Position numbers and translations under genes: made by a program
Notes under the pieces: model-generated
Databases searched by the model: none
What the model was told of the DNA's origin: nothing
Seen by the model: only the letters and a program-made list of their open reading frames with translations
Assembly: GCA_965232515.1 (NCBI GenBank)
Contig: CBDDPY010000002.1
Location: 6,688,001-6,752,000 of the forward strand
DNA length: 64,000 nucleotides
DNA from: Alphaproteobacteria bacterium
GTDB lineage: Bacteria > Pseudomonadota > Alphaproteobacteria > GCA-2731375
Direction of reading: 5' to 3'
Shown: one piece after another, positions 41,405-63,088 of the stretch
Layout: every line of letters begins with the position of its first letter
How positions within the stretch are numbered: the stretch's first letter is position 1

Positions 41405-42094
41405 ATGCCCGAGCCCGCCGCCGGAATGCAGTTGCCGCTCGCGCTGAATACGAAGCTCGAAGAGGACTTCATCTCGCCGCTGACCGCGGTGCGCGGCGCG
41501 ATCGAGATCCTGCGCGACTATCCGGACCTGGCGGCCGACGAGCGAAACCGGTTCATCGAAACGGCGCTGCGCGAATGCGCCCGGCTGGAAAAGGGCGTGG
41601 CGGACCTGGCCGAGACGGTCTACGCCGCCGGCCAGCGCGCGCATCTGCGGCCGGCCACCAGTCTGTCGCCGGAGACCTATCGCGAATATGCCGGCCGCAT
41701 CCGCTTCCACGACGCCATCGACGTGGTCGAGATCGATTTCAGCGACTTCGCCTTCCGCAACTCGAAGATCGTCAATGACTTCCATGACGTTATCGAGGCC
41801 GAGGTGAGCGCGACCGGCCGCGACTGGTATTTCGTCGTCAACCACCAGGCCTGCAGTGTCTGGCCGGAAGCCTGGGTCGCTTTTGCGCACCGCGGCAAGA
41901 AGGTGCAGGTGGCCCATGCGCTCGCAACGGTCCGCTATGCGGCCGAGCCCGACTCCGGTGACCAGTCATCGAACGCGTCGCGCGCCGGCCACGACCCCAA
42001 CATGTTTGCGTCGAGAGACCTTGCTCTGGCGCACGTTGAAGAGTTGCGCCATGCCGCCGACCTGACGCCGCCGCAACGACAACATCGACACTAG
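41405..42094 (+). CDS. hypothetical protein with a His-less HisKA/DHp-like N-terminus and no ATPase domain
   Basis: EDFISPLTAVRGAIEILRDYPDLAADERNRFIETALRECARL fits the DHp pattern; no N/G1/F/G2 boxes follow. Confidence 0.7.
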   Translation: MPEPAAGMQLPLALNTKLEEDFISPLTAVRGAIEILRDYPDLAADERNRFIETALRECARLEKGVADLAETVYAAGQRAHLRPATSLSPETYREYAGRIRFHDAIDVVEIDFSDFAFRNSKIVNDFHDVIEAEVSATGRDWYFVVNHQACSVWPEAWVAFAHRGKKVQVAHALATVRYAAEPDSGDQSSNASRAGHDPNMFASRDLALAHVEELRHAADLTPPQRQHRH

Positions 42095-44951: not shown

Positions 44952-45398
44952 TTAAGGCAAGTCCTTCAACACCTCGTCCGGATGATCGGCGGGCGTCACC
45001 TTGGCATAGACCTTGGCGATGCGGCCTTCCGGATCGATCAGATAGCTGATTCGCGCAGGATATTGCGCGTCCGCTGAGTCGGCCGCCCCATAGGTCATGC
45101 TGATGGCGCGGTCCTCGTCGCACAACAGATCGTAGGGAAAGCCGAACTTTTCTTGAAACGCCCGGTTCTCCGCCGGCGTATCGCAGCTGATCCCGAGCAC
45201 GATGGCGTTCTTGGCTGTGAAGTCTTGGATTCGATCACGGAACCCTTTGCCTTCAATGGTTCAGCCGGGGGTGTCAGCCTTCGGATACCACCAGAGAACG
45301 ACGTAGTGCCCCCGATACTGATCCAGTGAGGTCTGAATCCCCTGCTGGTTCGGCAGCGAAAAGGCGGGGGCGACATCCGCCTCATTCAACAAAGCCAC
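44952..45398 (-). CDS. bcp: selenocysteine-containing peroxiredoxin (BCP/PrxQ type), 148 aa, Sec46
   Basis: AAAGGAGA RBS and GTG at 45398. Hand translation MALLNEADVAPAFSLPNQQGIQTSLDQYRGHYVVLWWYPKADTPG-U(TGA 45263-45261)-TIEGKGFRDRIQDFTAKNAIVLGISCD continues in frame into ORF 44952..45200. TGA sits at the peroxidatic Cys of YPKxxTPGCT. Confidence 0.88.
45219..45254 (-). other. candidate bacterial SECIS hairpin
   Basis: After the UGA: ACCAUU GAAG GCAAA GGGUUC CGUGAUC GAAUCC AAGA CUUC. Upper stem GGGUUC/GAAUCC, lower stem GAAG/CUUC, G-containing apical loop 21 nt after the UGA. Confidence 0.55.
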
Positions 45399-45499: not shown

Positions 45500-45748
45500 T
45501 TAGCCGTCATCCGGCGTTTCCAAGCGGATGGCGAACGGGATGCCGTCAGCCGTGCCACGCAAGACAACGGCTGGGTTGCCGCCTGCGATCGCGGTGTCAC
45601 CTGGGGCTGGCGTTGCCTGAGGCGTGGATTCGGCCTCACGGGCATCCGCGCCGGCGAACAGGTCATCGAACTGTTTTCGGCTCTCCGCCAAGAGGCTGTC
45701 GAAGGCGTCCGACATGCCGCCAACGTTGCTGTCCGAATCAGACGCCAT
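45500..45748 (-). CDS. small acidic hypothetical protein (82 aa)
   Basis: ATG 6 nt after the isochorismatase stop; amphipathic helix, P/A/T linker, short beta-rich tail; helix matches the HyuB N-terminal motif. Confidence 0.7.
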   Translation of the reverse strand: MASDSDSNVGGMSDAFDSLLAESRKQFDDLFAGADAREAESTPQATPAPGDTAIAGGNPAVVLRGTADGIPFAIRLETPDDG

Positions 45749-45754
45749 CGGTTT

Positions 45755-46465
45755 TCAGGCGTCCACCTTGGGGCGTTCGTTCCACCAGCGCTGGAAGTTT
45801 TCGTTCGCGGTGCCGCCTAGACCGGCGCTCGCCACCTGCTTGATGTACCCCAGCGCTTCGTCGGCCGAGACCACGTCGCAGTATTTGGCGTCGAGGTCGA
45901 AGAGGTTCGCCTCGTGCGGTCCGTCGGCCCGGTCGCCGACGGCCTCGCGCACCACGATGGTGAGATAGCCGCTCTGCATCGAGTCGAGCGCCGAGGCGCG
46001 GACGCAGCCGCTGGTCGTGCAGCCCGTGACGATGACCGTGTCGACTCCCTGCGATTTCAGGTAGGCGTCGGCGTCGGTGCCGAAGAACGCGCTGGCGAAT
46101 TTCTTCTCGACAACATATTCGCCGGGCTGCGGCCGGAGGCGGTCGTCGATCTCGACCATGTGCGAGCCGCGCCGCAGGATCGACAGCGACGGCACTTTCT
46201 TGATGAACACGCCGGCGTCGCGATAGTCGGCGTCATAGGCCGTGGTCGTATAGACGATTGGCAGGCCGCCGAGCCGGAACGCCGTCAACAGGTCCTTCGT
46301 GACCGCGATCTCGTTCGTGAGATCGCCGCCGAGCGGGGTCGACGGGTCGGTGAAGCCGTTGATGAAATCGACGATCAGCAGCGCCGGCTTCTGGCCGTAG
46401 CCCGAGCGGACGGCGAAGCCCTTCTGCTCATAGTCGTCCCGCGTGCCGCGCTGCCAGTCGTTCAT
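45755..46465 (-). CDS. isochorismatase-family cysteine hydrolase (N-carbamoylsarcosine amidase/maleamate amidohydrolase-like)
   Basis: ALLIVDF (Asp), KKFASAFFGT (Lys), GCTTSGCVRASALD (Cys), HEANLFDLDAKYCDV; ATG at 46465 after GGAGG. Confidence 0.9.
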   Translation of the reverse strand: MNDWQRGTRDDYEQKGFAVRSGYGQKPALLIVDFINGFTDPSTPLGGDLTNEIAVTKDLLTAFRLGGLPIVYTTTAYDADYRDAGVFIKKVPSLSILRRGSHMVEIDDRLRPQPGEYVVEKKFASAFFGTDADAYLKSQGVDTVIVTGCTTSGCVRASALDSMQSGYLTIVVREAVGDRADGPHEANLFDLDAKYCDVVSADEALGYIKQVASAGLGGTANENFQRWWNERPKVDA

Positions 46466-46658
46466 CACCCACCTCCCGATTACCGTCCGGCAATCATGCC
46501 CCAGCCGCGGGGCATTTTGAAAGCCGTTGTTCGTCCAACCGACGTCGCCGCCACGACGGAATTGTCGTTTGTGCTTGGCAAGGGCGGCGCGAGGCCGGAA
46601 ACTTGGGCCCCAACCCAAGAAGTCAATCAAGCAAAACTGGGTTTCCGGAGGCCAACAG

Positions 46659-47732
46659 ATGAGTGAAGAGTCCTACGACAACCGTTCCCCACGGCCGGCG
46701 GCGCACGGCCTCGGCGGCAAATCCGCCCTCGGGCCGCGCTACCGGCCGAGCTCGCTGGTGACCTCGCGCGGGCCGTCGGCGCTGTCCGCCGGCAGCCGCC
46801 AGTCCGCCGTCAGCGGCCGCAAGGAAATCTTCTGCGCCTTCGGCATCGACGTCGACGCGGTGGCCGGCTGGCTCGGCTCCTATGGCGGCGAAGACTCGCC
46901 CTGCGACATCTCCCGCGGCCTGTTCTCGGGCGAGGTCGGCACGCCGCGGCTGGTGCGGCTGTTCGACCGCATGGGAATCAAGACCACCTGGTTCATCCCC
47001 GGCCATTCCGTCGAAACCTTCCCCGAGCAGTGCAAGATGGTGGTCGACGCCGGCCACGAGATCGGCATGCATGGCTACAGCCATGAAAATCCCATCGCCA
47101 TGACGCCCGAGCAGGAAGAGGCCGTCATGGATAAGTGCATCGAGCTGATCGAGCGCCTGTGCGGCCGCCGCCCGACCGGTTATGTGGCGCCGTGGTGGGA
47201 GTTCAGCCCGGTCACCAATGAGCTGCTGCTGTCGAAAGGCATCAAGTACGACCACAGCCTGATGAACAACGACTTCCAGCCGTTCTACGTGCGGGTGGGG
47301 GACAGCTGGACGCCGATCGACTATTCGAAGCACCCGGACGAGTGGATGCGGCCGCTGGTGCGCGGCCAGGAGACCGATCTGATCGACATCCCCGGCAGCT
47401 GGCATCTCGACGATCTGCCGCCGATGATGTTCATCAAGTCGGCGCCGAACAGCCACGGCTTCGTCAATCCGCACGATGTCGAGGCCTACTGGCGCGACCA
47501 GTTCGATTGGGTCTATCGGGAGTACGACTACGCGGTCTACACGCTGACGATCCATCCCGACGTCTCGGGCCGGCCGCACGTGCTGATGATGCTGGAGCGC
47601 CTGTTCGAACATATCTCCAGCCATCCGGGCGTGCGCTTCTGCACCTTCGATGAAATCGCCGACGACTTCGCGCAGCGCTTCCCGCGCGGCTCCGTCGACA
47701 ACATCGAAGCGGCCTCGCTGGCGCAACGCTAG
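46659..47732 (+). CDS. polysaccharide deacetylase-fold hydrolase (HP0310/PuuE-like)
   Basis: [54 protein letters not shown]; about 50 aa N-terminal extension. Confidence 0.9.
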
Positions 47733-47743
47733 GGCCGGGCGCT

Positions 47744-48079
47744 ATGTGCAGCCTCTGCGGCGTGCTCGGCGGCCGGGGCCACTGGACGGAAACGGCCAGC
47801 AACCCGGACGCTTTCCAGAGCCGCGCCGAGACCCATACCTGGCATCGTGAGCGGCAGACCCGAACGCGGCTCGTCAACGCGGTGCTGCGGCACTACGGGC
47901 TCAAGCTTGATGACTGGTCGGGCAACGCCTACATGCTGCGCAGCAAGACCGGCCGCACGGCGCTGGTCGACAACCTGACCGAGGTCTGGACCGCGGCCGA
48001 GCAGATCGGCCGCGGGGTCTGCGACCCGCTCGACGAGGACTTGCTGGCGTCCTTGTCCGATTCCGGGTCGGCGCGATGA
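47744..48079 (+). CDS. small Cys/His protein of unknown function
   Basis: MCSLCG..GHW..CDPLD; ATGA-coupled to the CobW gene. Confidence 0.75.
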   Translation: MCSLCGVLGGRGHWTETASNPDAFQSRAETHTWHRERQTRTRLVNAVLRHYGLKLDDWSGNAYMLRSKTGRTALVDNLTEVWTAAEQIGRGVCDPLDEDLLASLSDSGSAR

Positions 48080-49128
48080 CCGACTATGCCGCCCTGATCC
48101 CGATCAACGTGATCACCGGCTTTCTCGGCAGCGGCAAGACCAGCCTGCTGCAGCGGCTGCTGGCCTCGCCAAGCCTGTGCGATACAGCGGTGCTGGTGAA
48201 CGAGTTCGGCGAGGTCGGGCTCGACCACCAACTGCTGCAGCATGTCGCCGAGAGCACGCTGCTGCTGGACAACGGTTGCCTGTGCTGTGCCGTGCGCGGC
48301 GATTTGCAGGACTCGTTGCGGCAGCTTTTCTCGCAGCGCGAGCGCGCCGAGATCTCGCCGTTCCGCCGGGTCGTGATCGAGACATCCGGCCTCGCCGATC
48401 CCGTGCCGATCGCCTACACCATCTTGGCCGAGCCGGTGATCCAGCATCATTTCCGTCTCGGCAACGTGGTCACCACCATCGACGCGGTGAATGGCGGACA
48501 GCAACTCGACGCCTACCCGGAATCGGTGAAACAGGCAGCCATCGCCGACCGCGTGGTCGTGACCAAGACCGATCTGGACGAGGAGGGACGTTTCGGCGCC
48601 CTGGAGCATCGCCTCCGGCAACTCAATCCGTCGGCGCCGGTGATCCGCGCGGCGGACGGGGTGCTGGACCCCGAACAGCTCCTGGCCCAGGACGTCTACG
48701 ATGCCGACAGCAAGCAGCGGGACGTCGAAGACTGGCTCGCCGCCCACACGGTGTCGACCGAAAACCAGGGTGGCCACGACCATACACACGGCGTCGCGTC
48801 GTTCTGCCTGACCTTCGATGCGCCGCTCGACTGGACGGCGTTCGGCATCTGGATGACCATGCTGCAGCACCGGCATGGCGAGAACGTGCTGCGTATCAAG
48901 GGCATGCTGAACGTCGCGGGTCAGTCGGCGCCGGTGCTGATCAATGGCGTCCAGCACATCGTGCACCCGCCGACCCATCTCGACGCCTGGCCCGATGCCG
49001 ACCACCGCTCGCGCATCGTTTTCATCACGCGCGGCCTCGACCAGGCGCGCATCGAAGCCTCGCTTGCCGCCTTCAACCGGTTGGCAAATCCCGTCGCGGC
49101 GCGGATGCCCGTCGACGCCTTGGCCTGA
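48076..49128 (+). CDS. CobW/COG0523 metallochaperone GTPase
   Basis: GFLGSGKT, NEFGEVGLD, GCLCC, IETSGLADP, HDHTH, LRIKG. Confidence 0.93.
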   Translation: MTDYAALIPINVITGFLGSGKTSLLQRLLASPSLCDTAVLVNEFGEVGLDHQLLQHVAESTLLLDNGCLCCAVRGDLQDSLRQLFSQRERAEISPFRRVVIETSGLADPVPIAYTILAEPVIQHHFRLGNVVTTIDAVNGGQQLDAYPESVKQAAIADRVVVTKTDLDEEGRFGALEHRLRQLNPSAPVIRAADGVLDPEQLLAQDVYDADSKQRDVEDWLAAHTVSTENQGGHDHTHGVASFCLTFDAPLDWTAFGIWMTMLQHRHGENVLRIKGMLNVAGQSAPVLINGVQHIVHPPTHLDAWPDADHRSRIVFITRGLDQARIEASLAAFNRLANPVAARMPVDALA

Positions 49129-49136
49129 TTAGACGA

Positions 49137-49664
49137 TCAGCTTGAAGGTCCGGGTGTCGTCATCCGCGGCGGCGGCCGTCGCGGCGTCCAGCCCGTGCGG
49201 AAGGCTCGGACCACGAAGTGCAGCAGGTAGAAGATCACCGCCAGGATCACCAGCAGGATGATCGACAACAGCTTGCTGCCGAATTCGGCATCGACGATGG
49301 CGCCGCGGCTCATCAGATGCTCGCTCAGCACCTCGATGGCCTGAATGGTGGCGCCGGCGCAAAAAATCACCGCGATCAGGATGGCGATCTGCAACGTGTC
49401 GAAGACCAGGGTTTCCACATTCAGCTGGCCGCTGCTGTGGAAGATATTTTTCCGAAACGACTGCCAGTGCGCGATGGCATAGCCGATGACGCCGACCAGC
49501 GAGGCGAACCAGAAGATCACGTTGCTGAAGCGGATATTCGGAATGTGCTCGACCAGATAAGTCTCGAACGGCTGATAGAAGTAGAGAAAGATCAGCAGGA
49601 TAATGACGCCGCCGAGGACGATCCAAAACCGCGGCCGCTCAGAATGTTCCTGTTCCTCGGACAT
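49137..49664 (-). CDS. hypothetical integral membrane protein (4 TM)
   Basis: Four hydrophobic segments; divergent from hyuA. Confidence 0.75.
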   Translation of the reverse strand: MSEEQEHSERPRFWIVLGGVIILLIFLYFYQPFETYLVEHIPNIRFSNVIFWFASLVGVIGYAIAHWQSFRKNIFHSSGQLNVETLVFDTLQIAILIAVIFCAGATIQAIEVLSEHLMSRGAIVDAEFGSKLLSIILLVILAVIFYLLHFVVRAFRTGWTPRRPPPRMTTPGPSS

Positions 49665-49937
49665 GGGCTGTTCTTCGCCTCGTTGGTTACCGGCAGGGAT
49701 CGTATACGAAATCCCGCGCCCGTCAAAAGCGCTTCACCGATGCCCCTGACTCGCCCGCGCCGAACCTGCAAGACGTAAATCAGATTGACCGGATGACGCG
49801 CGTTGGTGATCATTCGGGAAACGATAAATCCGCGGAGGCGTTTCTTGCTGGTTTCGGATTATCCGACAACCGCCCTGGGCGGTGCGTGTTCGGTGCGCGT
49901 GCGCGTCGACCTGACGTGGGCGACGTAAGGACGGAGC

Positions 49938-51995
49938 ATGACCAGTCGTCTCTGTATCGATGTTGGCGGGACATTCACCGATCTGTTGCTGGTCGACGAC
50001 GACAGCGGTCGGCGGACGCATCTGAAGACGCCGACGACGCCGGGCGATCCGGCGGCGGGAATCCTGAGCGGTATCGAGCAGATCACGGTCGAGGCCGGCG
50101 TCGCCGCGGCGGAGATCGGCGCGGTGCTGCACGGGTCAGGCTTGGCCGTCGACGCGGTGCGGCGGAAGACGGGCGCCAGGGTCGGCCTGCTGGTGACGCA
50201 AGGCTTCGAGCATCTGCTGCACCTGGCGCGCGCGCGGACGCCGGCGCCCATGGGCGGCTGGACGACGATGAAAAAGTCGGCGCCGCTCGCCGACATCGAA
50301 TTCACGCACGGCGTGACTGAACGCATCAACGCGCGCGGCGACGTGGTGACGCCGCTCGACGAGGCCAAGGCGCGCGCCGCCGTGCGCGCGTTGTTGGACG
50401 CCGGCGCCGACTCAATCGTCGTCGCATTCCTGCACGCCCATGCCAACCCCGCGCACGAGCAGCGGGTCAAGGCCCTGGTGGCGGAAATGGCTGCCGATAT
50501 GCCGGTGGCGCTGTCGTCCGAGATGTCGTCGCGGCACGGCGAGTACGAGCGCACGCTGGTCGCGGTGATGAACGCCTATCTGCGGCCTGGCATGCAGCGC
50601 TACCTGGACGACATCGAGACGAAGCTGCGCGGCGCGGATGTGGCGGCGCCGATCAGCATGATCCGTCCGGACGGCGGGCGCATGGCCGCGATCTATGCGA
50701 CCGAGCGGCCGGCCCAGACCATGCTGTCGGGTCCCGCCGCCGCCGTGTCCGCCGCCGCCGCGGCAGCGGCGCAGGCCGGACACCAGAATGCGATCAGCTT
50801 CGACATGGGCGGCACGTCCACCGGTGTCGCGGTCATCCGCGACGGCGAAAGCCAGACTGGTTCGCACATGACGTTCGCCGACGATGCCGTTGCCGTACCG
50901 TCAATCGACATGCGCAAGATCGGCCGGGGCGGCGGGGCGGTCGCCCATGTCCCGGTGACGGGCGCCCTGCGGGTCGGGCCCGAGGGCGCCGGCGCCGTTC
51001 CCGGCCCGGCCTGTTATGGTCGGGGCGGCGACCGGCCGACGTTGACCGATGCCAACGCCGTTCTGGGCCGCCTGCCGGGAACGCTGCTCGGCGGCCGGAT
51101 GCCGCTCGACACCCGCGCCGCCGAGGAAGCGATGGGCAAGCTCGCCCGGACGCTCGGTCTCGACACCTATCAGACGGCCCTCGCCATCGTCGACGTCTGC
51201 AACGAGGATCTGGCGGGCGAGGTGCGGCTGGCCGCGGTGGCGCACGGGCTGGACACCGGCGATATGGCGATGGTCGCCGGCGGCGGCGCCGGACCGATGC
51301 ATGCCGTCGCACTGGCGCGGCTGATCGGCTGTTATCCGGTTATCGTGCCGCCGACGCCCGGCCTGCTGTCGGCATGCGGCTTTCTGAACGCCGACATTCG
51401 CCATGAATGCGGTCGCGCTGTCATGCGCCTTGTCGACGAGATCGACAGCGCCCGTTTCGGTGACGTGCTCGACCGGCTGGCGGCCGACGCCACCGCGCTG
51501 CTCGAGGCCGAGCAGGTGGAACCCGCGGCCCGGTCGCTGCGGTTCGAGGCGGACCTGCGATATCTCCGTCAAGGCAGCGAATTCACGTTCACCGTCGAGC
51601 CGGCCGGTCTGCGCAACGGCGGTCTTCAGGATCTCGCCACACGCTTCGCGGCGGCACACGAGCGGCGGCACGGCGTCAAGCTCGATCAACCGATCGAGCT
51701 GCTGGCGATCCGCGCCATTGGCCTAGGTCGGACGGCGCAGCCGTCTGATGCGACCGTCGAGGCGGGTGGACCTGACGCCTCGGCCGCCATTGTCGACCAG
51801 CGCCAGGTCTATTTCGATCAGGGGTTTGTCGCGACTGACATCTACGACCGGGCTTTGCTGCGCGCGGGCAACCGCCTGATCGGACCGGCGATCGTCGAGC
51901 AGGCGGACGCGACCACGGTCGTGCATCCGGGGCATGTCGCCGAGGTCGATGCGCACGGCAACATGCTCATCCGGCCCGAGGCCGTTCGGCACTAG
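49938..51995 (+). CDS. hyuA: hydantoinase/oxoprolinase subunit A (divergent motifs)
   Basis: IDVGGTFTD, DMGGTST, PGPACYGRGG..PTLTDAN, GPAIVEQADATT. Confidence 0.9.
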   Translation: MTSRLCIDVGGTFTDLLLVDDDSGRRTHLKTPTTPGDPAAGILSGIEQITVEAGVAAAEIGAVLHGSGLAVDAVRRKTGARVGLLVTQGFEHLLHLARARTPAPMGGWTTMKKSAPLADIEFTHGVTERINARGDVVTPLDEAKARAAVRALLDAGADSIVVAFLHAHANPAHEQRVKALVAEMAADMPVALSSEMSSRHGEYERTLVAVMNAYLRPGMQRYLDDIETKLRGADVAAPISMIRPDGGRMAAIYATERPAQTMLSGPAAAVSAAAAAAAQAGHQNAISFDMGGTSTGVAVIRDGESQTGSHMTFADDAVAVPSIDMRKIGRGGGAVAHVPVTGALRVGPEGAGAVPGPACYGRGGDRPTLTDANAVLGRLPGTLLGGRMPLDTRAAEEAMGKLARTLGLDTYQTALAIVDVCNEDLAGEVRLAAVAHGLDTGDMAMVAGGGAGPMHAVALARLIGCYPVIVPPTPGLLSACGFLNADIRHECGRAVMRLVDEIDSARFGDVLDRLAADATALLEAEQVEPAARSLRFEADLRYLRQGSEFTFTVEPAGLRNGGLQDLATRFAAAHERRHGVKLDQPIELLAIRAIGLGRTAQPSDATVEAGGPDASAAIVDQRQVYFDQGFVATDIYDRALLRAGNRLIGPAIVEQADATTVVHPGHVAEVDAHGNMLIRPEAVRH

Positions 51996-52008
51996 GGGCG
52001 CGGGCGCA

Positions 52009-54081
52009 ATGACAGAACAGAACACGCCCGCCCATCCGGTCTCGCTCGACGACCTGCTGCGGTCGAACAAGGATCAGTTCGACAAGGTCTTCGACACCCA
52101 GATGCGCCGCATCGACGTCGGCGGTACGACCTATACGCCGGCCGCCGAAGAGGCGCCGCCGCCCAAGGTGGTCGTTGCGGCCGAACAGGAAAGCGAAATG
52201 CCGTCGGCGTCGCCGTCCGGCCAGGAACCGGTGCTGGCGCTCGCCGCGCCGGAGACGCTCACGCGCGTCGAGGCCCGGCCGAGCGCGGACGTGGATCCGG
52301 AGCGCGCGCCGGACGCGATCTCGCTTGATCTGGTCGAGGGCGCGTTGCGGAACGCCCGGCGCGAGATGGACGCCGCTCTGCGGTGGCAGGCCATCTCGCC
52401 GGCGATCCGCGACCAGCATGACGCGTTTCCGACGCTTGCCGACGCCGAGGGCCGAATGCTCGCCGGTTCGTTCGGCGGCTTTCTGCGGGACATGTTGCAG
52501 CAGCAGATGCCGGATCTGCAGCCGGGCGACGTGATCCTGCAGAGCGACCCCTACCGCAGCGACGGCGCGGTTGGCCACGTGAACGACTGGCTGGTGCTGA
52601 TGCCGGTGTTCTACGGTGACGTGCCGGTCGGGTTCAGCGCCATGTGCGGCCACATGGTCGACGTCGGCGGGCCGGTGCCCGGCAGCCTGCCGACCTCGGC
52701 GACCTCGATCTTCGGCGAAGGCATCCGCATCCCGCCGATCAAGCTCTACGCGGGCGGTGAGCCGAACCGGGCCGTGCTCGACCTGTTATGGAATAACACC
52801 CGGACGCCCGACCTGAACTACGCCGATCTGATGGCGCTGGTTGCCGCCTGCCGGGTCGGCGAGCGGCGCCTGATCGAGATCTGCGACCGCTTCGGCGTGG
52901 CGCCTTTCCGGCGCGCCGGCGAGGCGCTGCGCGAACGCACGAAACGCACCCTGCGGCGCCTGATCGTCCAATATCTGCCCGAGGAACCGCAGTCGTTCGA
53001 GGACCATATCGACAGCGACGGACGGGGGAACGGGCCGTTCAAGATCAAGCTGACGGTCTGGCGCGAGGGCGAGCAGGCCTTCTTCGACTGGACCGGAACG
53101 GCCGCCCAGGCGCCGGGGCCGGTCAACTTCTATCTGCATGACGGTCTGTTTAAATCCGTCGTCGGCGCCTATTTGAGTCGGGCGGTCGATCCGCGTATCC
53201 AGCTCAACGATGCATTCTACGATCTGATCCACGTTACCCTGCCGAAGGGCTCGTTGCTGCGCCCGACATTTCCAGCAGCGCTTGGCGGACGCGCGCATGC
53301 CATGTCGCGGCAGTTCGACGTGCTGACGGGCGCCATGAGCCGCACCATGCCCCGCGAGGCGACGGCGGCCGGCTGCGGCTCCAGCCCGCAATTCCGCTTC
53401 GCCGGGATCGATCGCGACGGTCGACCCTTCCAGTTCGCGGATCACGTTTTCGGCGGCATTCCCGGCCGGCCCGTCGCCGACGGCATCGACGGCCATGCCT
53501 GGCAACCGATGGCCGAGACCGCGCCCGTCGAAACTCTCGAAAGCTGCTATCCTGTCATCGTCGAGCGTTGCGGCGCGGTGCCGGACTCCGGCGGGGTTGG
53601 ACAGCATCGCGGCGGCAACGGGGTGGAGAAGGTCTACCTGCTGCTCGAGACGGGGGAGGTGTCAATTCACGACGATCGCGAGCGCACGCAGCCCTGGGGT
53701 ATTGGGGGCGGCGGGCCGGGCGCCAGTTCGGCGAAGTGGATCGAGCGGAAGGACGGCGAGCGCGCGCCGCTGCCGTCGAAGATTGATCGTCTCAAGGTGC
53801 GCAACGGCGACCGCATTATCTTCCGCACCGCCGCCGGCGGCGGCTGGGGCGATCCGCTGGAGCGCGATCCGGTTCGGGTCCGTAAAGATGTGGTCCGCGG
53901 CCTCGCGACCGCCGAAGCGACGCGGGCGGCCTACGGCGTCGTGCTGACAGAGGACGGCCTTGAGATTGACATCGGCGCGACCGAGGAGTTGCGAGACGAA
54001 AAGCGCCGGAACCGGCGACCGACGTCGGCATTCGACTTCGGTGAGCGGCGGCGCGACAATGGCGACACGGATACGAGTTGA
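52009..54081 (+). CDS. hyuB: hydantoinase B/oxoprolinase subunit with ~100 aa N-terminal extension
   Basis: DPY..HVND, GHMVDVGGPVPGS, FGEGIRIPP, DSGGVGQHRGG, GGGWGDPLERD. Confidence 0.9.
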   Translation: MTEQNTPAHPVSLDDLLRSNKDQFDKVFDTQMRRIDVGGTTYTPAAEEAPPPKVVVAAEQESEMPSASPSGQEPVLALAAPETLTRVEARPSADVDPERAPDAISLDLVEGALRNARREMDAALRWQAISPAIRDQHDAFPTLADAEGRMLAGSFGGFLRDMLQQQMPDLQPGDVILQSDPYRSDGAVGHVNDWLVLMPVFYGDVPVGFSAMCGHMVDVGGPVPGSLPTSATSIFGEGIRIPPIKLYAGGEPNRAVLDLLWNNTRTPDLNYADLMALVAACRVGERRLIEICDRFGVAPFRRAGEALRERTKRTLRRLIVQYLPEEPQSFEDHIDSDGRGNGPFKIKLTVWREGEQAFFDWTGTAAQAPGPVNFYLHDGLFKSVVGAYLSRAVDPRIQLNDAFYDLIHVTLPKGSLLRPTFPAALGGRAHAMSRQFDVLTGAMSRTMPREATAAGCGSSPQFRFAGIDRDGRPFQFADHVFGGIPGRPVADGIDGHAWQPMAETAPVETLESCYPVIVERCGAVPDSGGVGQHRGGNGVEKVYLLLETGEVSIHDDRERTQPWGIGGGGPGASSAKWIERKDGERAPLPSKIDRLKVRNGDRIIFRTAAGGGWGDPLERDPVRVRKDVVRGLATAEATRAAYGVVLTEDGLEIDIGATEELRDEKRRNRRPTSAFDFGERRRDNGDTDTS

Positions 54082-56997: not shown

Positions 56998-58080
56998 ATG
57001 CCGCAGTACGACGTCATCCTGGAGCATGTCGACAAGACCTTCGACGGTGACGTCCGAGCGGTGATCGACTTCAACGCTGAGATCGAGCAGGGCGAGTTCG
57101 TCGCCATGCTCGGTCCCAGCGGCTGCGGCAAGACCACGACACTGCGCATGATCGGCGGCCTGGAGGAGGTGACGGCCGGCAAGATTTTCATCGCCGGCCA
57201 GGACGTGACCGATCTGCCGCCGTCGCATCGCGACACGGCGATGATGTTTCAGAGCTTCGCGCTGTTCCCGCACCGCACCGTGTTCCAGAACGTCGAGTTC
57301 AGCTTGAAGATGAAAGGCATCGCGCCGGACGAGCGGGCGCGTCATGTCTGGGAAATGTTGGAGATGGTCGGCCTCGCCGATTTCTCCAGTCGGCGTCCGA
57401 GCGACCTCAGCGGCGGTCAGCAGCAACGCGTGGCCTTGGCCCGCGCGCTGATCAGCCGGCCGACGGTGCTCTTGCTGGACGAGCCGCTGGGCGCGCTCGA
57501 CTACAACCTGCGTCAGACCATGATGGTCGAGCTGAAGAAGATCCAGCGCGAGACCGGCATCACCTTCATCATGGTCACGCACTCGCAGCAGGAAGCCATG
57601 TCGATGGCCGACAAGGTCATCGTCATGAGCGACTCCGTGATCCAGCAGATCGGCACCTCGCGTGAAATCCATGAGTATCCGCGCACCAAATTCGTCGCCG
57701 AGTTCATTGGCAACAACAACCTGTTCCCCGGCGTGATCAAGTCGCGGAGCGGCTCGATCATCTTCGTCGAGTTCAACGACCATCTGCTCTATGTGAAAGC
57801 GCCCGAGGAATTGCGCGATGTCGAGGTGGGCCGGGAGATCTATTTCTCCGTCCGCGCCGACCTCATGCATGCCGGCGACCACCCCGACATGGCGAACCGG
57901 ATCGAGGGCAGCTACGTCACCACAGAGTTCATGGGCACGCTGGAAACGGATGTCTTCGAGGTCGCGCCCGGCATCTACGTGCATGTCGAGCAGCACCGCA
58001 AGGTAACCGACCATGTCTACAGCATGGGCGACCGCGAAACGATCTGCTGGGCGGCCGAGGCCGGCGTCATTCTGGAATAA
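56998..58080 (+). CDS. PotA-like ABC transporter ATPase
   Basis: GPSGCGKTT, LSGGQQQRVALARAL, LLLDEPL, VTHSQ. Confidence 0.94.
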   Translation: MPQYDVILEHVDKTFDGDVRAVIDFNAEIEQGEFVAMLGPSGCGKTTTLRMIGGLEEVTAGKIFIAGQDVTDLPPSHRDTAMMFQSFALFPHRTVFQNVEFSLKMKGIAPDERARHVWEMLEMVGLADFSSRRPSDLSGGQQQRVALARALISRPTVLLLDEPLGALDYNLRQTMMVELKKIQRETGITFIMVTHSQQEAMSMADKVIVMSDSVIQQIGTSREIHEYPRTKFVAEFIGNNNLFPGVIKSRSGSIIFVEFNDHLLYVKAPEELRDVEVGREIYFSVRADLMHAGDHPDMANRIEGSYVTTEFMGTLETDVFEVAPGIYVHVEQHRKVTDHVYSMGDRETICWAAEAGVILE

Positions 58081-58124: not shown

Positions 58125-59591
58125 ATGACCAAGGGAGAAGGCGAGCGCGCCTTGCGGGTGGCGGTGATCGGCGCCGGCATGTCGGGCATTCTCGCCGCCA
58201 TCAAGCTGCGCGAGGCCGGCATCACCGACATCGCGATCTACGAGAAGGCAGACCGTCTGGGCGGCACGTGGCGCGACAACACCTATCCCGGCCTGTCCTG
58301 CGACGTGCCCTCCCACCTCTACACCTATTCTTTCGAGCCGAACCCGGACTGGAGCCATCGCTTTTCGCCCGGGGCCGAGATCCAGGCCTATTTCGAGAAG
58401 GTCGCGGCGAAATACGACGTCGAGCCGCTGATCGCCTACAACGCCGAGGTCACGCGCGCCGCGTTCGAGGACGGCAAGTGGCGGCTTGAGATCAAGGACG
58501 GGCGGACCGATTTGGTCGACATCGTGTTGACCGCGACCGGCGTGCTGCACCACCCGGTCTACCCAACGATCGACGGTCTCACCAGCTTTGCCGGCGCCTG
58601 TTTCCACAGCGCGCGTTGGGACCACGGCGTGCCGCTCGCGGGCAAACGGGTCGGCATCATCGGCACCGGCTCGACCGGCGTTCAGATCCTGCCCGCCATC
58701 GTCGACGAGGTCGCCTCGATCAGCCTGTTCCAGCGCACCGCGCAATGGATCCTGCCGCTGCCGAATCCCGCGCACAGCGAAGAGGAGAAGGCGGCGTTCC
58801 GGGCATCGCCCGAGCTGCTGCGGGCGACCTACCTCGATCTGGCGGAGCGGTTCCAGAACACCTTCGCCCGCGCCGTGGTCGGCGATTCCGCGCAGATGCA
58901 GCGCATCGCGGATGCCTGCCAGGCGAACCTTGACGACAATGTCGCCGATCCCGAGCTGCGGCAAAAGTTGACGCCGGACTATCAGGTCGCCTGCAAACGC
59001 CTGATCATGTCGGATCAGTTCTATCCCGCGATCCAGAAACCGAACGCCCATCTAGTGACCGAGGCGATCACCCGCATCGAGCCCGAGGGCGTGCGCGCCG
59101 CCGATGGGCAACTGCACGAGCTGGACGTGCTGGTGCTGGCGACCGGCTTCGACGGCCACCGCTTCATGCGGCCGATGCAAATCGTCGGCCGCGACGGCCG
59201 GACCTTGGAAGACGCCTGGGCCGCCGCGAACGAGGCCTATCGCTCGGTCGCTGTGCCCGGCTTCCCGAACTTCTTCACGATGGTCGGTCCGAACAGCCCG
59301 ATCGGCAATTTCTCGCTGATCATGATCTCCGAGATGCAGCTCGCCTACATCATGCAGCTCATCGAGCTGGTCCGGACGGGCGAATGCCGGGAGGTCGCGC
59401 CGACCGCGGCCGCGACTGTGCGCTTCAACGCTGCCATCAAGGAGGCCATGAAAGGCACGGTCTGGGTTACCGGCTGCCGCAGCTGGTATCTCGACAAGAA
59501 CGGCAATCCGGCGATGTGGCCCTGGACCTTCGAGCGCTTTGAGGCCGAGATGGCCAAGCCCGACCTCAGCGAATTCGAGCTCGTCGCCTGA
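58125..59591 (+). CDS. Baeyer-Villiger/flavin-containing monooxygenase
   Basis: GAGMSG, GGTWRDNTYPG, FAGACFHSARWD fingerprint, GTGSTG, ATGF. Confidence 0.93.
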   Translation: MTKGEGERALRVAVIGAGMSGILAAIKLREAGITDIAIYEKADRLGGTWRDNTYPGLSCDVPSHLYTYSFEPNPDWSHRFSPGAEIQAYFEKVAAKYDVEPLIAYNAEVTRAAFEDGKWRLEIKDGRTDLVDIVLTATGVLHHPVYPTIDGLTSFAGACFHSARWDHGVPLAGKRVGIIGTGSTGVQILPAIVDEVASISLFQRTAQWILPLPNPAHSEEEKAAFRASPELLRATYLDLAERFQNTFARAVVGDSAQMQRIADACQANLDDNVADPELRQKLTPDYQVACKRLIMSDQFYPAIQKPNAHLVTEAITRIEPEGVRAADGQLHELDVLVLATGFDGHRFMRPMQIVGRDGRTLEDAWAAANEAYRSVAVPGFPNFFTMVGPNSPIGNFSLIMISEMQLAYIMQLIELVRTGECREVAPTAAATVRFNAAIKEAMKGTVWVTGCRSWYLDKNGNPAMWPWTFERFEAEMAKPDLSEFELVA

Positions 59592-59712: not shown

Positions 59713-60540
59713 TCACCTGAACCGGCGCATCAGCAGCGTGTAGATCACCAGGAACAGGCCGATCATCAGCAGCGAGAACACGGTCGACGCCGTGCCCAGC
59801 GCAAACAATGTCGGTCTTATGCGCTGGGTCATCGAGGCGTTGATGTCGAGCGGCAGGGTGTTGAACTCGCCGGCGAGCAATGTGGTGCGCGCGAACTCGT
59901 CGTAGGACAGCGTGAAGCCGAACAACCCGGCGGCGACGATGCCGGGCGTGATCAGCGGCAGCGTCACCTCCTTGAAGACCGTCCATTCGTCGGCGCCCAT
60001 ATCGCGGGCCGCCTCCTCCAGTCTGCCGTCGAAACGGTTGAACACGGCCATCATCACCAGGAAGCCGAACGGCAAGGTCCAGACCACGTGCACGCCCAGC
60101 GCCGAGGAATACCAGGCCGGCGGAATGCCGATCTGCCGCATCAGTGAGGCGAGGCCGAGGCTGAGCAGAATGCCGGGCACCATCAGGCCCGCCATCACCG
60201 TGTAGAACAGCACGTTCGACCCGGTGAAACGCTTGCGGAAGGCCATCGCCAGCATGGTCGAGAACAAAGCCGTAATGACCATGACGATCAGCGCCAGGAT
60301 CAGCGAGCGCAACAGCGCGCCCTGCAGATCGCCGACAGTGGACGGCTCGATCAGCTTCTGCCACCAGTGCAGACTGAAGCCGCGCATGGGAAAGCTGGTG
60401 CCGCCGCGACGGCCCTGGAACGACAGCACGAACATCGCGATCATCGGGCCGTAGATGAACAGGATGAAGATGACGTAGTAGACGCTGAACCCGCCCTTGA
60501 TCCAGGCTTTCTTGCGGCGCTCCGGGGTCCAGCGCGCCAT
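59713..60540 (-). CDS. PotC-like ABC permease
   Basis: GFSLHWW, LEEAARDMGA..F.EVTLPLI.PG EAA loop, FTLSYDEF. Confidence 0.92.
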   Translation of the reverse strand: MARWTPERRKKAWIKGGFSVYYVIFILFIYGPMIAMFVLSFQGRRGGTSFPMRGFSLHWWQKLIEPSTVGDLQGALLRSLILALIVMVITALFSTMLAMAFRKRFTGSNVLFYTVMAGLMVPGILLSLGLASLMRQIGIPPAWYSSALGVHVVWTLPFGFLVMMAVFNRFDGRLEEAARDMGADEWTVFKEVTLPLITPGIVAAGLFGFTLSYDEFARTTLLAGEFNTLPLDINASMTQRIRPTLFALGTASTVFSLLMIGLFLVIYTLLMRRFR

Positions 60541-60541
60541 C

Positions 60542-61522
60542 TCAGAGCTCCTTGCGGATGTTGACGACGCGCAGGATCACGACCACGCCGATCATCATGG
60601 CCAGCATCAGCATCAACGCGTTGACCGCCGCGAAGGGATAGTTCGCGATCGCGTAATAGTTCAGGATCACCGTGCCGGTGGTCGTGGTCTTGCCGCCATA
60701 GACCACGACGGCCGTGGCGAATTCGCCCATGATCATGACGAAGATGAAGATCATGCCGATGGCCACGCCCGGCAGCGACAGCGGGCCGATGATCTCGCGG
60801 AAGATCTGGAACGACGTCGCGCCCATGTCGCGCGCGGCTTCCAGGATCGCCTTGTCGATCTTCGCCAGCGAAAAGAAGATCGGCCCGACGCAGAGCACGA
60901 CATAGAGCTGCACCAGCGCCATGGTGTAGCCGAACTCCGAATAGAGCAGCAGGCTTGTCGGCTTGTCGATGGCGCCGATATTGATCAGGAACGTGTTCAA
61001 CAGCCCGCGCCGGCCCAGCATCGGCAGCCAGGCCACGGCGCGGATCAGATAGCTGGTCCAGAACGGCACCATGGCCAGCAGGAACAGCGCCATCTGCCAC
61101 TTGAACGACTGCACCTGCATGGCCAGGAAGTAGGCGATGGGATAGCCGACGATCAGGCACAGCACCATGACCGCCAGCGTGAAATAGAGCGTCGAGCCCA
61201 GCGTGCGCAGGAACACGCTCGGCGTCAGGAAGCGATCACTCTCGGGGTCGAAAAAGCCCTCCGCCTCGAAATAGGCGCGATAGTTCTCCAGCGTCAGCGC
61301 CGGCTCCATACCGTGGCCGGACGACGACCAGAAGCTGAAGACGATGATGCCGAGCAGCGGCAGCACCAGAAACAGGATCAGCCAGGCGCTCGGCAGCGTG
61401 ATCAACCAGGCCGTCGGGAAGCCGGGCTCGCGCCGCAGCTTCTTGGCCTCGTCGATTGCTTGCGGCGGGACCGGCTGGCTGCCGATCAGGCCGGCGTGAT
61501 GTGTATCGGCGATCTGCTGCAT
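60542..61522 (-). CDS. PotB-like ABC permease
   Basis: VPFWTSYLIR..AW, ILEAARDMGA, PLSLPG. Confidence 0.92.
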   Translation of the reverse strand: MQQIADTHHAGLIGSQPVPPQAIDEAKKLRREPGFPTAWLITLPSAWLILFLVLPLLGIIVFSFWSSSGHGMEPALTLENYRAYFEAEGFFDPESDRFLTPSVFLRTLGSTLYFTLAVMVLCLIVGYPIAYFLAMQVQSFKWQMALFLLAMVPFWTSYLIRAVAWLPMLGRRGLLNTFLINIGAIDKPTSLLLYSEFGYTMALVQLYVVLCVGPIFFSLAKIDKAILEAARDMGATSFQIFREIIGPLSLPGVAIGMIFIFVMIMGEFATAVVVYGGKTTTTGTVILNYYAIANYPFAAVNALMLMLAMMIGVVVILRVVNIRKEL

Positions 61523-61552
61523 GCTGGCATCGACGACGCGTTACGACCGAAA

Positions 61553-61583
61553 CGGGCGGGCGCGGCCATTGCCGCCCCGCCCG
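61553..61583 (-). other. GC-rich stem-loop between binding-protein and permease genes
   Basis: CGGGCGGG(C)GCGGC-CATT-GCCGCCCCGCCCG. Confidence 0.5.
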
Positions 61584-61614
61584 CCGGTTACACCATTGAT
61601 TGCCGGACCCGCGC

Positions 61615-62904
61615 TTAGGCGCTCAGGAACTCGGTCCAGCGCTTCACCAGATAGTCGTTCTCGTCCATCAGCGAGTTCCAGACGGCGATGTTGCTGAAGC
61701 GGTCCCAATAGGAGCCGCCGTCGCGCACTTCGCCCTTTTCGACGATGATGGTGTCGAACGGATCCGGCAGCTCCTTCGCCGCCGGCTTGCCCATGTACCA
61801 GTAGTCCCACTCTTCGGGCTCGAGGTGCTTCTTCACGTTCTCGGGCACCGACATGTAGTAGCCCTGGCGCGCCACGAACGCGCCGGCCCAGCCGTCGAGC
61901 CACCAGTTGAGATATTCATAAGCGGCGTCGAGCTGCTTGCCCGTGACCTTGGCCGAGATCGCCAGGCCGCCGTGCCAGCCGCGCATGCCTTCCTTCGGGA
62001 AGGCGTAGATGCAGGGCACGCCTTCCGCCTTCACGGCGGTGACGGCGGGCGACCACATGCTTTGCACCGCGACCTCGCCGCTGACCATCAGGTTCACCGA
62101 CTGGCCGAAGGTTTCCCAGAACGCTCGGAAATGGCCTTCCTTCTTCCTCTCGATCAGGAAATTGATCAGGAAGTCGATTTCCTCCCGGGTCATGTTGCCC
62201 TTGTCTTTGAAGGTGTAGGCGCCCATGGCCTCGATCGCCAGCGCGGCGTCCATGGTGCCGATCTGCGGCACGTTCAACAGCGCCACCTGGCCCTTGAAGT
62301 CGGCGCTGAACAGGTCGGCCCAGCTCTCGATGTCGCGGCCGGTTTCTTCCGGGTTGTAGCCGAGCGAATCCGCGTTGTGCCAGCCGGGCAGCATCGAGAT
62401 GTAGCGCGACGGGCCATCGACCCGGTTGCCGTCGGCGTCCAGCCAGAGGTGCCGAAACGGCGCATCGCCCTGGCCGGCATTCGATTCCGGTGTCAGTTTG
62501 CCGGTTTTGGAGAGGTTGGTGACCTTATCCCATTCCTTGATTCGTTGCGTATCGATCGGCTGCCAGACCTTCGCCGGGATGAAGACATCCATGTCGTTGA
62601 AATAGCCTTCGGCGATCTCGTATTGATCGTTTTGGTTCAGCATCTTGCCGAACATGGCGCCATACCCCAACGCCTGCCCGCGTACCCCGATGCCGAGATC
62701 CTGGGACGCCTTGCCCTGAATCTCGTTGATGACGCTCACGCCCAAACCGATGGTGCGCAGCGATTCCGCGCCATGACCGATGCTGGGGAAGCCGCCGACG
62801 AACGAACCCGCCGCGACGGCGCTCGCGGTCGTGCCCATGAACTTGCGGCGGCTGATGCCCCTGCTCTTGGTCTTGCTGGTACCCGTTGGCTTCTTTGCCG
62901 TCAT
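61615..62904 (-). CDS. PotD-like ABC substrate-binding protein (Tat-exported)
   Basis: SRRKFM Tat motif; NADSLGYN, SWADLF, QSMWSP, PKEGMRGW. Confidence 0.88.
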   Translation of the reverse strand: MTAKKPTGTSKTKSRGISRRKFMGTTASAVAAGSFVGGFPSIGHGAESLRTIGLGVSVINEIQGKASQDLGIGVRGQALGYGAMFGKMLNQNDQYEIAEGYFNDMDVFIPAKVWQPIDTQRIKEWDKVTNLSKTGKLTPESNAGQGDAPFRHLWLDADGNRVDGPSRYISMLPGWHNADSLGYNPEETGRDIESWADLFSADFKGQVALLNVPQIGTMDAALAIEAMGAYTFKDKGNMTREEIDFLINFLIERKKEGHFRAFWETFGQSVNLMVSGEVAVQSMWSPAVTAVKAEGVPCIYAFPKEGMRGWHGGLAISAKVTGKQLDAAYEYLNWWLDGWAGAFVARQGYYMSVPENVKKHLEPEEWDYWYMGKPAAKELPDPFDTIIVEKGEVRDGGSYWDRFSNIAVWNSLMDENDYLVKRWTEFLSA

Positions 62905-63088
62905 ATTCTGCCTCCCGTTGTTACTGGGTAATCCCGTGTCTCACGGTCCCAAAGATGTGGATCGCTATGCCAATGGCGTATCCGCTAACAGCTAGCTTTT
63001 ATTTAGGATTTTCCATGACGTGCTTTGTCGAATGATAGCTTAGAGTCGGGGGCTGGGAAACGCAAAGAAAGTAAGGGGGAGGCGGAGT

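Follow-up and report, generated by a model that had tools for sequence, protein, structure and literature searches.

Bacterial microcompartments (BMC) have encapsulation peptides, terminal amphipathic helices of 15–20 residues joined to a poorly conserved linker (PMC4594438). The cages formed by SPFH proteins are structurally known, human flotillin being a 44-mer dome 22 nm high and 32 nm wide with a wall of 186 aa (PMC11260169), and the purpose of their lumen and the cargo of the related vault are open questions. Among hydantoinase-type enzymes, the CapAB-like tetramer measures 7 x 8 x 17 nm, and a D-H-D-H metal tetrad is essential in caprolactamase (CapB) (PMC8453981). Here we compare with these systems a gene cluster located in 64,000 nucleotides of alphaproteobacterial DNA (the window in what follows; contig CBDDPY010000002.1, positions 6,688,001 to 6,752,000), part of a metagenome-assembled genome of 7.39 Mb that is 96% complete. 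An 82-aa protein and the B subunit of a hydantoinase/oxoprolinase (HyuB) carry there the same short amphipathic helix, and hyuB is followed by the gene of a flotillin. At the minimum, the genes form a conserved cluster of proteobacteria, not described before, in which a very long flotillin goes together with a helix of the docking type that is specific to the cluster. Such a locus, encoding a putative oversized cage together with tailed soluble enzymes, makes the loading of SPFH cages directly testable with few genes.

A cluster-specific helix on HyuB and on a small protein family

A sequence-only reading of the window had noticed a 16-residue peptide common to the two proteins, and this was borne out, with 7 of the 16 positions identical and a BLOSUM62 score of 38. 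Its placing of the catalytic fold of HyuB about 100 residues in was also correct (ATG at 52009, Pfam domain from residue 102). When all 10.45 million six-frame positions of the genome are compared, each peptide has the other as its best non-self ungapped match, though narrowly (38 vs. 37 and 38 vs. 34). The score of the pair does not go beyond chance: when 17 local proteins were shuffled 60 times, some pair reached at least 38 in 47 of the rounds, the shuffled small protein reached 38 against its 16 neighbors in 66 of 1000 shuffles, and two unrelated real pairs scored 44 and 39. The pairwise score was therefore dropped as evidence for sharing. The shared peptide is significant because the profiles of its relatives match, and not from the pair itself. 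With a profile of 12 distinct HyuB motifs (one identical to that of the window HyuB, none from the small family), the small open reading frame came out as the best other match of the whole genome, with 18.6 bits against 13.6, and the profiles of the small family and of the HyuB motifs matched each other at 95% (E = 2e-8). The consensus in HyuB is S-[LF]-D-D-L-L-K-A-N-K-x-Q-F-D-x-[IV]-F, and the variant of the small gene, S-x-F-D-D-M-L-x-x-[NS]-K-K-[RQ]-F-D-D-L-[YF], is present in 46/47 loci with the isochorismatase gene. In eight close homologs of the small protein the helix is invariant at all but one of the 16 positions while the linkers vary. Spanning residues 9–29 in the structure model of the small family, it has the form of a BMC encapsulation peptide, a terminal amphipathic helix of 15–20 aa with a variable linker.

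The motif is conserved in orthologs, being found in all 67 flotillin loci that contain the 5' end of hyuB (the remaining 10 of the 77 are cut by contig ends), and it was found in none of the 18 other HyuB paralogs of the window genome, so that, as with encapsulation peptides, only the copy belonging to the cluster carries it. The nearest sibling clade of HyuB starts without the extension; it is represented in the window genome and, as a second copy, in 3/4 inspected loci. The extension-less sibling pair of the window genome lies at C2:841-845 kb. Neither did the motif turn up away from the flotillin. When metagenome loci were picked by the HyuB extension, the flotillin came next in 56/56 of those with at least 2.7 kb downstream (80 were picked; of the 24 that were too short, 7 still showed it). 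Of 401 genomes of the class, 18 contained the C-terminus of the flotillin; the motif was detected in these 18 and otherwise only as one marginal match. In a sample of the phylum, either marker was found in 0/400 other genomes, a result that shows rarity and nothing more. The weak matches in genomes G027 and G033 (E > 0.008) lay, on inspection, in unrelated frames and were treated as chance, as was that in G084 (E 8.6e-4, a 36-aa frame).

A search of 1.84 billion representative sequences gave 71 matches, all close to the N-terminus. Nearly all were pieces of HyuB, one was a small protein and one a peroxiredoxin of the Redoxin family. Three others in which the motif accompanied kinase, FtsW-like and TPR pieces (P0014, P0033 and P0054) were rejected as fusions, since they look like fragments of HyuB that are frameshifted or chimeric. 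Besides the 46 small-family proteins that carry it, the helix is thus also found on a third type of protein, in keeping with the earlier proposal that different proteins are recruited. The fusion with the peroxiredoxin is located directly 3' of the small gene in G029 (locus L013, 2827-3279, minus strand). The end of the L013 peroxiredoxin is apparently cut, by eye, by a neighboring transposase-like open reading frame, and P0032 is a complete form of 202 aa. In the window itself, the peroxiredoxin is, from its sequence, probably a selenoprotein: the in-frame TGA is at the expected active-site position with a hairpin just after it, the genome has selA and tRNA-Sec, and the same TGA is found in the peroxiredoxins of L022, L028 and L060. 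Peroxiredoxins of the selenoprotein type are present in the window and in at least three other loci at the site where G029 has the helix fusion.

The 82-aa protein had been taken for an orphan, which it is not; it belongs to what we call here the small family. Actually, 35 of the 46 small proteins are about 160 aa long and consist of the helix, a linker and a domain of Rad52-N/dsRBD fold with a hairpin insert, and in most HyuB this same succession of helix, linker and domain precedes the catalytic part. Both N-terminal modules align end to end (99.9%, 35% identity), and a structure search in the ESM Atlas also connects them. The 82-aa protein and the HyuB extension are, on these sequence comparisons, shrunken copies of one module, related by common descent. 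The domain has been lost from both in the window genome, where HyuB keeps helix and linker and the small protein helix, linker and hairpin. It scores below 10 bits in 8/66 HyuB, scattered on the tree, one of which still has a worn copy by eye. The helix is kept in these 8 HyuB and in 7 of the 46 small proteins without the Rad52-like core; these seven are genuinely short, whereas a further four owe their shortness to a frameshift or to the end of a contig. The sharing is a matter of descent, yet the helix is the part retained.

The structure model of a full-length member of the small family matched the Rad52-N fold with a Foldseek E of 8.5e-4 and a Z of 9.3 (83 residues superposed at an rmsd of 3.2), and dsRBD folds scored Z 6–7 against the same domain, so that it may belong to either the Rad52 or the dsRBD family. 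The fold was seen in the full-length family member only and is absent from both window proteins. Matches to PF04098 were weak and below the cut-off in most members, with one above it. A profile search of the PDB sequences gave no Rad52 at E ≤ 10, and nothing under E 0.01 was obtained there for the HyuB extension.

The gene cluster and its long flotillin

The genes are arranged in the order small gene (minus strand), isochorismatase (minus), deacetylase, CxxC protein, CobW, membrane protein (minus), hyuA, hyuB, flotillin and potA (Table 1). This order recurs in 20 regions of related genomes and in 77 loci found through the flotillin, two sets that partly overlap; the 77 come from alpha-, beta- and gammaproteobacterial and SAR324 records. 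In the 58 loci with about 10 kb upstream, hyuB, hyuA and the membrane protein were always present, followed by the deacetylase (55), CobW (52), the CxxC protein (50) and the isochorismatase (46). The cluster of the window genome extends further, with PotC/B/D-like genes, an amidohydrolase that is putatively dihydropyrimidinase-like by its motif, two additional membrane proteins and another isochorismatase. Taken together, the enzymes suggest that a cyclic amide or N-heterocycle is imported and hydrolyzed.

Table 1. Features of the window, with positions counted from its first nucleotide.
Feature	Positions	Strand	Remarks
Probable selenocysteine peroxiredoxin	44952..45398	-	In-frame TGA 45261-45263; directly 3' of the small gene
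82-aa protein, short form of the small family	45500..45748	-	Helix, linker and beta-hairpin; Rad52-like core lost
Conserved hairpin, G-T-A-D-G-I-P-F core	45521..45568	-	Insert of the full-length family, retained in short forms
Amphipathic helix, small-family type, conserved	45656..45703	-	
Isochorismatase-family amidohydrolase	45755..46465	-	Cluster-specific C-terminal tail F-x-R-W-W, about 45758-45817
Polysaccharide-deacetylase/PuuE-like hydrolase	46659..47732	+	N-terminal tail of ~45 aa, conserved R-Y-x-P about 46731-46760
111-aa protein, N-terminal CxxC	47744..48079	+	Matches no Pfam or NCBIfam family
CobW/COG0523 metallochaperone GTPase	48076..49128	+	
Multi-pass membrane protein, 175 aa, no known family	49137..49664	-	In 58/58 loci with ~10 kb upstream
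HyuA, hydantoinase/oxoprolinase A subunit	49938..51995	+	Two family motifs altered in the window lineage
HyuB, hydantoinase/oxoprolinase B subunit	52009..54081	+	N-terminal extension of ~100 aa; D-H-D-H intact; long branch
Amphipathic helix, HyuB type, conserved	52045..52092	+	
Flotillin/SPFH protein, 938 aa	54165..56981	+	TM helix, SPFH domain, predicted ~570-residue helix, putative cap-like region, C-terminal helical domain
PotA-like ABC ATPase	56998..58080	+	3' of the flotillin in 73/73 loci with room
PotC/PotB/PotD-like ABC permeases and binding protein, extended cluster	59713..62940	-	

Several other genes lie around this set. A flavin monooxygenase between potA and potC (58125-59591, plus strand) is found in 1/77 loci only and is a lineage-specific addition. 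Just beyond the window, at C2:6752588-6755016, lie the gene of the second isochorismatase and those of two membrane proteins, one a paralog of the 175-aa protein and the other, of 369 aa, without known family; these membrane proteins are candidates for a channel beneath the putative cage. On the other side, at 41405-42094 (plus strand), there is a 229-aa protein with a weak, below-cut-off match to HisKA and no detected ATPase domain. Contigs of a relative about 90–95% identical, from four RNA libraries, cover 30/30 bins including intergenic DNA; as there is no silent control stretch, this coverage is not taken as expression.

HyuB is not the only enzyme with a tail. In 53/53 testable copies of the deacetylase (5 were too short), R-Y-[QR]-P is found within an N-terminal extension rich in Gly, Ser and Arg, and the isochorismatase has a helix-like C-terminal tail F-x-x-[WF]-W in 43/47, against 0/4 of its paralogs. 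Profiles of these two tails gave no convincing further carrier in the window genome, only one 19-bit match in a 66-aa frame. Several enzymes with locus-specific tails are the pattern that revealed the cargo of BMC (PMC4594438).

The flotillin has a transmembrane (TM) helix at residues 2–29 followed by Band_7 (PF01145, 53.8 bits against a cut-off of 23.6). Its first 261 aa are 40% identical to a 598-aa paralog, and it does not reach the FloT equivalog NF058507 (31.9 bits against a cut-off of 700). After the TM segment there is a mean of 4.1 K/R and 0 D/E (71 sequences), so that by the positive-inside rule the bulk of the protein would be in the cytoplasm. The structure model predicts a helix at 197–797 with short breaks and an extra helical domain at 859–936; the cap region, with an invariant I-R-M at 800–802, is unmodelled (pLDDT < 50). 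The long helix shows a period of 29 residues, and the common lengths of 851, 909 and 938 aa are multiples of 29 apart. At about 570 residues it is about three times the cage wall of human flotillin. By analogy the protein may assemble into a ring or dome, and a wall of this length would stand about 65–85 nm tall, in which a CapAB-like tetramer would fit. A regression on helix length (PMC12624060), extrapolated far beyond its data range, would give about 100 subunits. Other clusters of flotillins of about 700 aa are seen in Actinomycetota and Bacteroidota in the ESM Atlas, and their neighborhoods might hold parallel systems.

As to HyuB itself, the D-H-D-H metal tetrad is intact in 56/66 cluster copies, including that of the window, and in 18/18 paralogs. 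The 10 copies that have lost it retain the helix and the position 5' of the flotillin. For 7 of them the partner HyuA was included in an alignment, and in these its nucleotide motifs are altered. At least two changes account for the loss on the HyuB tree, made by a quick method with long-branch warnings and leaving out four frameshifted or cut HyuB (L087, L092, L112 and L123). This suggests that the HyuAB unit as a whole has a structural role for which catalysis is dispensable. In the window (49938-54081), hyuA is about 53% and hyuB about 60% identical to their orthologs, while the flanking genes reach 65–80%, a divergence that is possibly an early degeneration toward a non-catalytic role. The window genome has 19 genes for hydantoinase/oxoprolinase B subunits and about as many for A subunits, an unusually large family.

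Possible partners of the helix

The helix is terminal, amphipathic and confined to the cluster, it could be moved to another enzyme, and it outlasts the loss of the Rad52-like domain or of HyuB catalysis. On this basis we consider it quite likely that it mediates a protein contact within the cluster; that the partner is the flotillin, as had been proposed from the sequence, we would give slightly less than an even chance. In such a mechanism, many flotillin subunits would form a dome of roughly 65–85 nm that stands on the inner membrane and covers the ABC transporter, the small membrane proteins or both, and the helix would dock HyuAB, the small protein and occasionally the peroxiredoxin onto this cytoplasm-facing cage. 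The helix would tether HyuAB (a tetramer of 17 nm in a homolog), the small protein could be an adaptor or a plug, and the tails of the isochorismatase and the deacetylase might dock these enzymes too. HyuAB would then open an imported cyclic amide or N-heterocycle at the expense of ATP, and the amidohydrolases would complete the breakdown beside the membrane.

Several observations weigh against docking on a flotillin cage. The idea of a peptide that recruits different proteins to a common scaffold stands as far as its conservation and its linkage to the flotillin go, and the peroxiredoxin speaks for recruitment; however, the two copies in the window have a common ancestry, so that they are paralogous remnants of one module and not two independent recruits, and the fusion with the peroxiredoxin represents a single lineage, P0032 being a repeat of the G029 protein. 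The co-occurrence of helix and flotillin follows from their linkage in one inherited cluster, whose kin are not independent. Gene context cannot single out the flotillin as the partner, because hyuA, the membrane protein and potA are linked as tightly. The small gene and the isochorismatase (present in 46/58) are absent from many loci. In the HyuB without metal ligands, the helix is 46% identical to a reference, the same as their catalytic domain (46%). As for the cage, its size is an extrapolation, the flotillin model is of low confidence (pLDDT 63, pTM 0.23) and the flotillin profile has 0 matches among the PDB sequences. When a 36-aa piece with the HyuB helix was co-folded, on an alignment of 48 rows, with flotillin 62–290 and 705–938 in two copies each, the score was 0.00, "no answer"; this weighs neither for nor against, as the controls were not folded, residues 291–704 were outside and the set-up was unlike the calibration of the tool.

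The same gene context would serve two other partners, for which reason they are not separable from docking on the flotillin. The helix could associate with itself and gather the small protein and the tetramers of HyuAB in an enzyme core, which the flotillin contacts otherwise or while only organizing the membrane. The a/d-like spacing of L, L, N, F and I on an amphipathic helix would suit this, the attached domain shares the fold of the ring-forming Rad52, and BMC encapsulation peptides are described as aggregating cargo (PMC4594438). We find it unlikely all the same, since residues of both faces (D, D, K, Q, D) are strictly conserved, as would suit a defined partner, the helix was never found apart from the flotillin, and HyuB retains it in loci without the small gene. 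A transporter-enzyme metabolon, in which the helix docks on the small membrane protein, PotA or HyuA and the flotillin merely surrounds membrane proteins like stomatin or HflK/C, has in its favor the complete linkage of these genes (hyuA and the membrane protein in 58/58, potA in 73/73 testable loci) and the fact that known SPFH cages enclose membrane proteins (PMC12624060). It seems improbable to a like degree, as it leaves unexplained a wall three times the length needed for a membrane protein and its stepwise change in length, and HyuA pairs with HyuB in 18 paralogs without any helix.

That the match is just a relic of a duplicated module of helix and Rad52-like domain, or a degron or regulatory element, with no role in assembly, we regard as very improbable; homology does span the whole module and change is accelerated in the hyuA/hyuB of the window lineage, but the helix is near-invariant in the eight close small homologs while the linkers vary, and it outlasts domain loss in both proteins and has moved to a peroxiredoxin. 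Least of all do we expect a membrane-binding anchor that brings the enzymes to flotillin microdomains with no protein partner, for although such microdomains are established and the hydrophobic moment (0.45–0.59) would allow it, the mean hydrophobicity is negative, the polar face carries invariant aspartates where typical membrane anchors are basic, and the position-specific conservation exceeds the needs of lipid binding.

Comparison with known compartments, cages and enzymes

With Rad52/Rad22, Sak and the Mgm101 annealase the cluster shares the fold of its domain, which here is attached to a hydrolase or to the putative docking helix, is dispensable and has no DNA-repair neighbors. Both cluster subunits match the families of CapAB, HyuAB and OplAB below the equivalog cut-offs, with the tetrad in 56/66 copies; the cluster HyuB differs by its N-terminal helix and Rad52-like domain, and 10/66 are ligand-less.

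The encapsulation peptides of BMC (PduP, PduD, EutC, CcmN) are likewise terminal amphipathic helices on variable linkers, carried by the cluster copy of the enzyme only (PMC4594438), but they are conserved in pattern only, whereas the helix described here is strongly conserved in sequence and descended from a Rad52-like module. The BMC shell family PF00936 had 0 matches in the 96% complete window genome (control positive in 2/14). Encapsulins have cargo-loading peptides too, that is, short terminal peptides such as would load enzymes here, and their cargo includes peroxidase-type enzymes. The shell of family 1 encapsulins, PF04454 (Linocin_M18), gave 0 matches in the window genome (control positive in 3/14), and no capsid-like family recurs among the neighbors of the cluster, although no profile search was aimed at the HK97-fold shells of families 2–4. 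The helix would work like an encapsulation peptide, yet the system is a member of neither the BMC nor the family 1 encapsulins.

The cluster flotillin has in common with SPFH cages (FLOT1/2, HflK/C, QmcA, stomatin, FloT, YqiK) the TM anchor and Band_7, and its predicted long non-heptad helix and putative cap-like C-terminal region resemble theirs. The walls of the surveyed SPFH proteins are of 44–189 aa (PMC11260169) against about 570 aa here, and the 29-aa repeats, the extra C-terminal domain and the fixed linkage to soluble catabolic enzymes with tails set the cluster flotillin apart. The vault, whose protein MVP belongs to the SPFH family, is also an SPFH-derived cage with soluble cargo and of a size comparable to that predicted here (PMC12624060); the putative cage of the cluster is membrane-anchored, bacterial and tied to a defined metabolic gene set, and no MVP repeats were detected in the flotillin. 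In the open literature, the scope of the search, we found no description of the cluster or of a bacterial SPFH cage loaded with soluble enzymes. We tentatively put forward, as a possibility that we hold to be rather doubtful, a third kind of bacterial protein organelle beside microcompartments and encapsulins. It would be a cage as large as a vault, anchored in the membrane and made of about 100 subunits of a single flotillin, its height tuned in steps of 29 residues, loaded by way of terminal peptides with a cyclic-amide pathway and fed by transporters at its base. HyuAB and the Rad52-like domain would also be structural parts of it, and catalytically dead HyuB would persist for that reason. 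If true, it would add to the peptides and shells of microcompartments and encapsulins a new targeting peptide and a new compartment for engineering.

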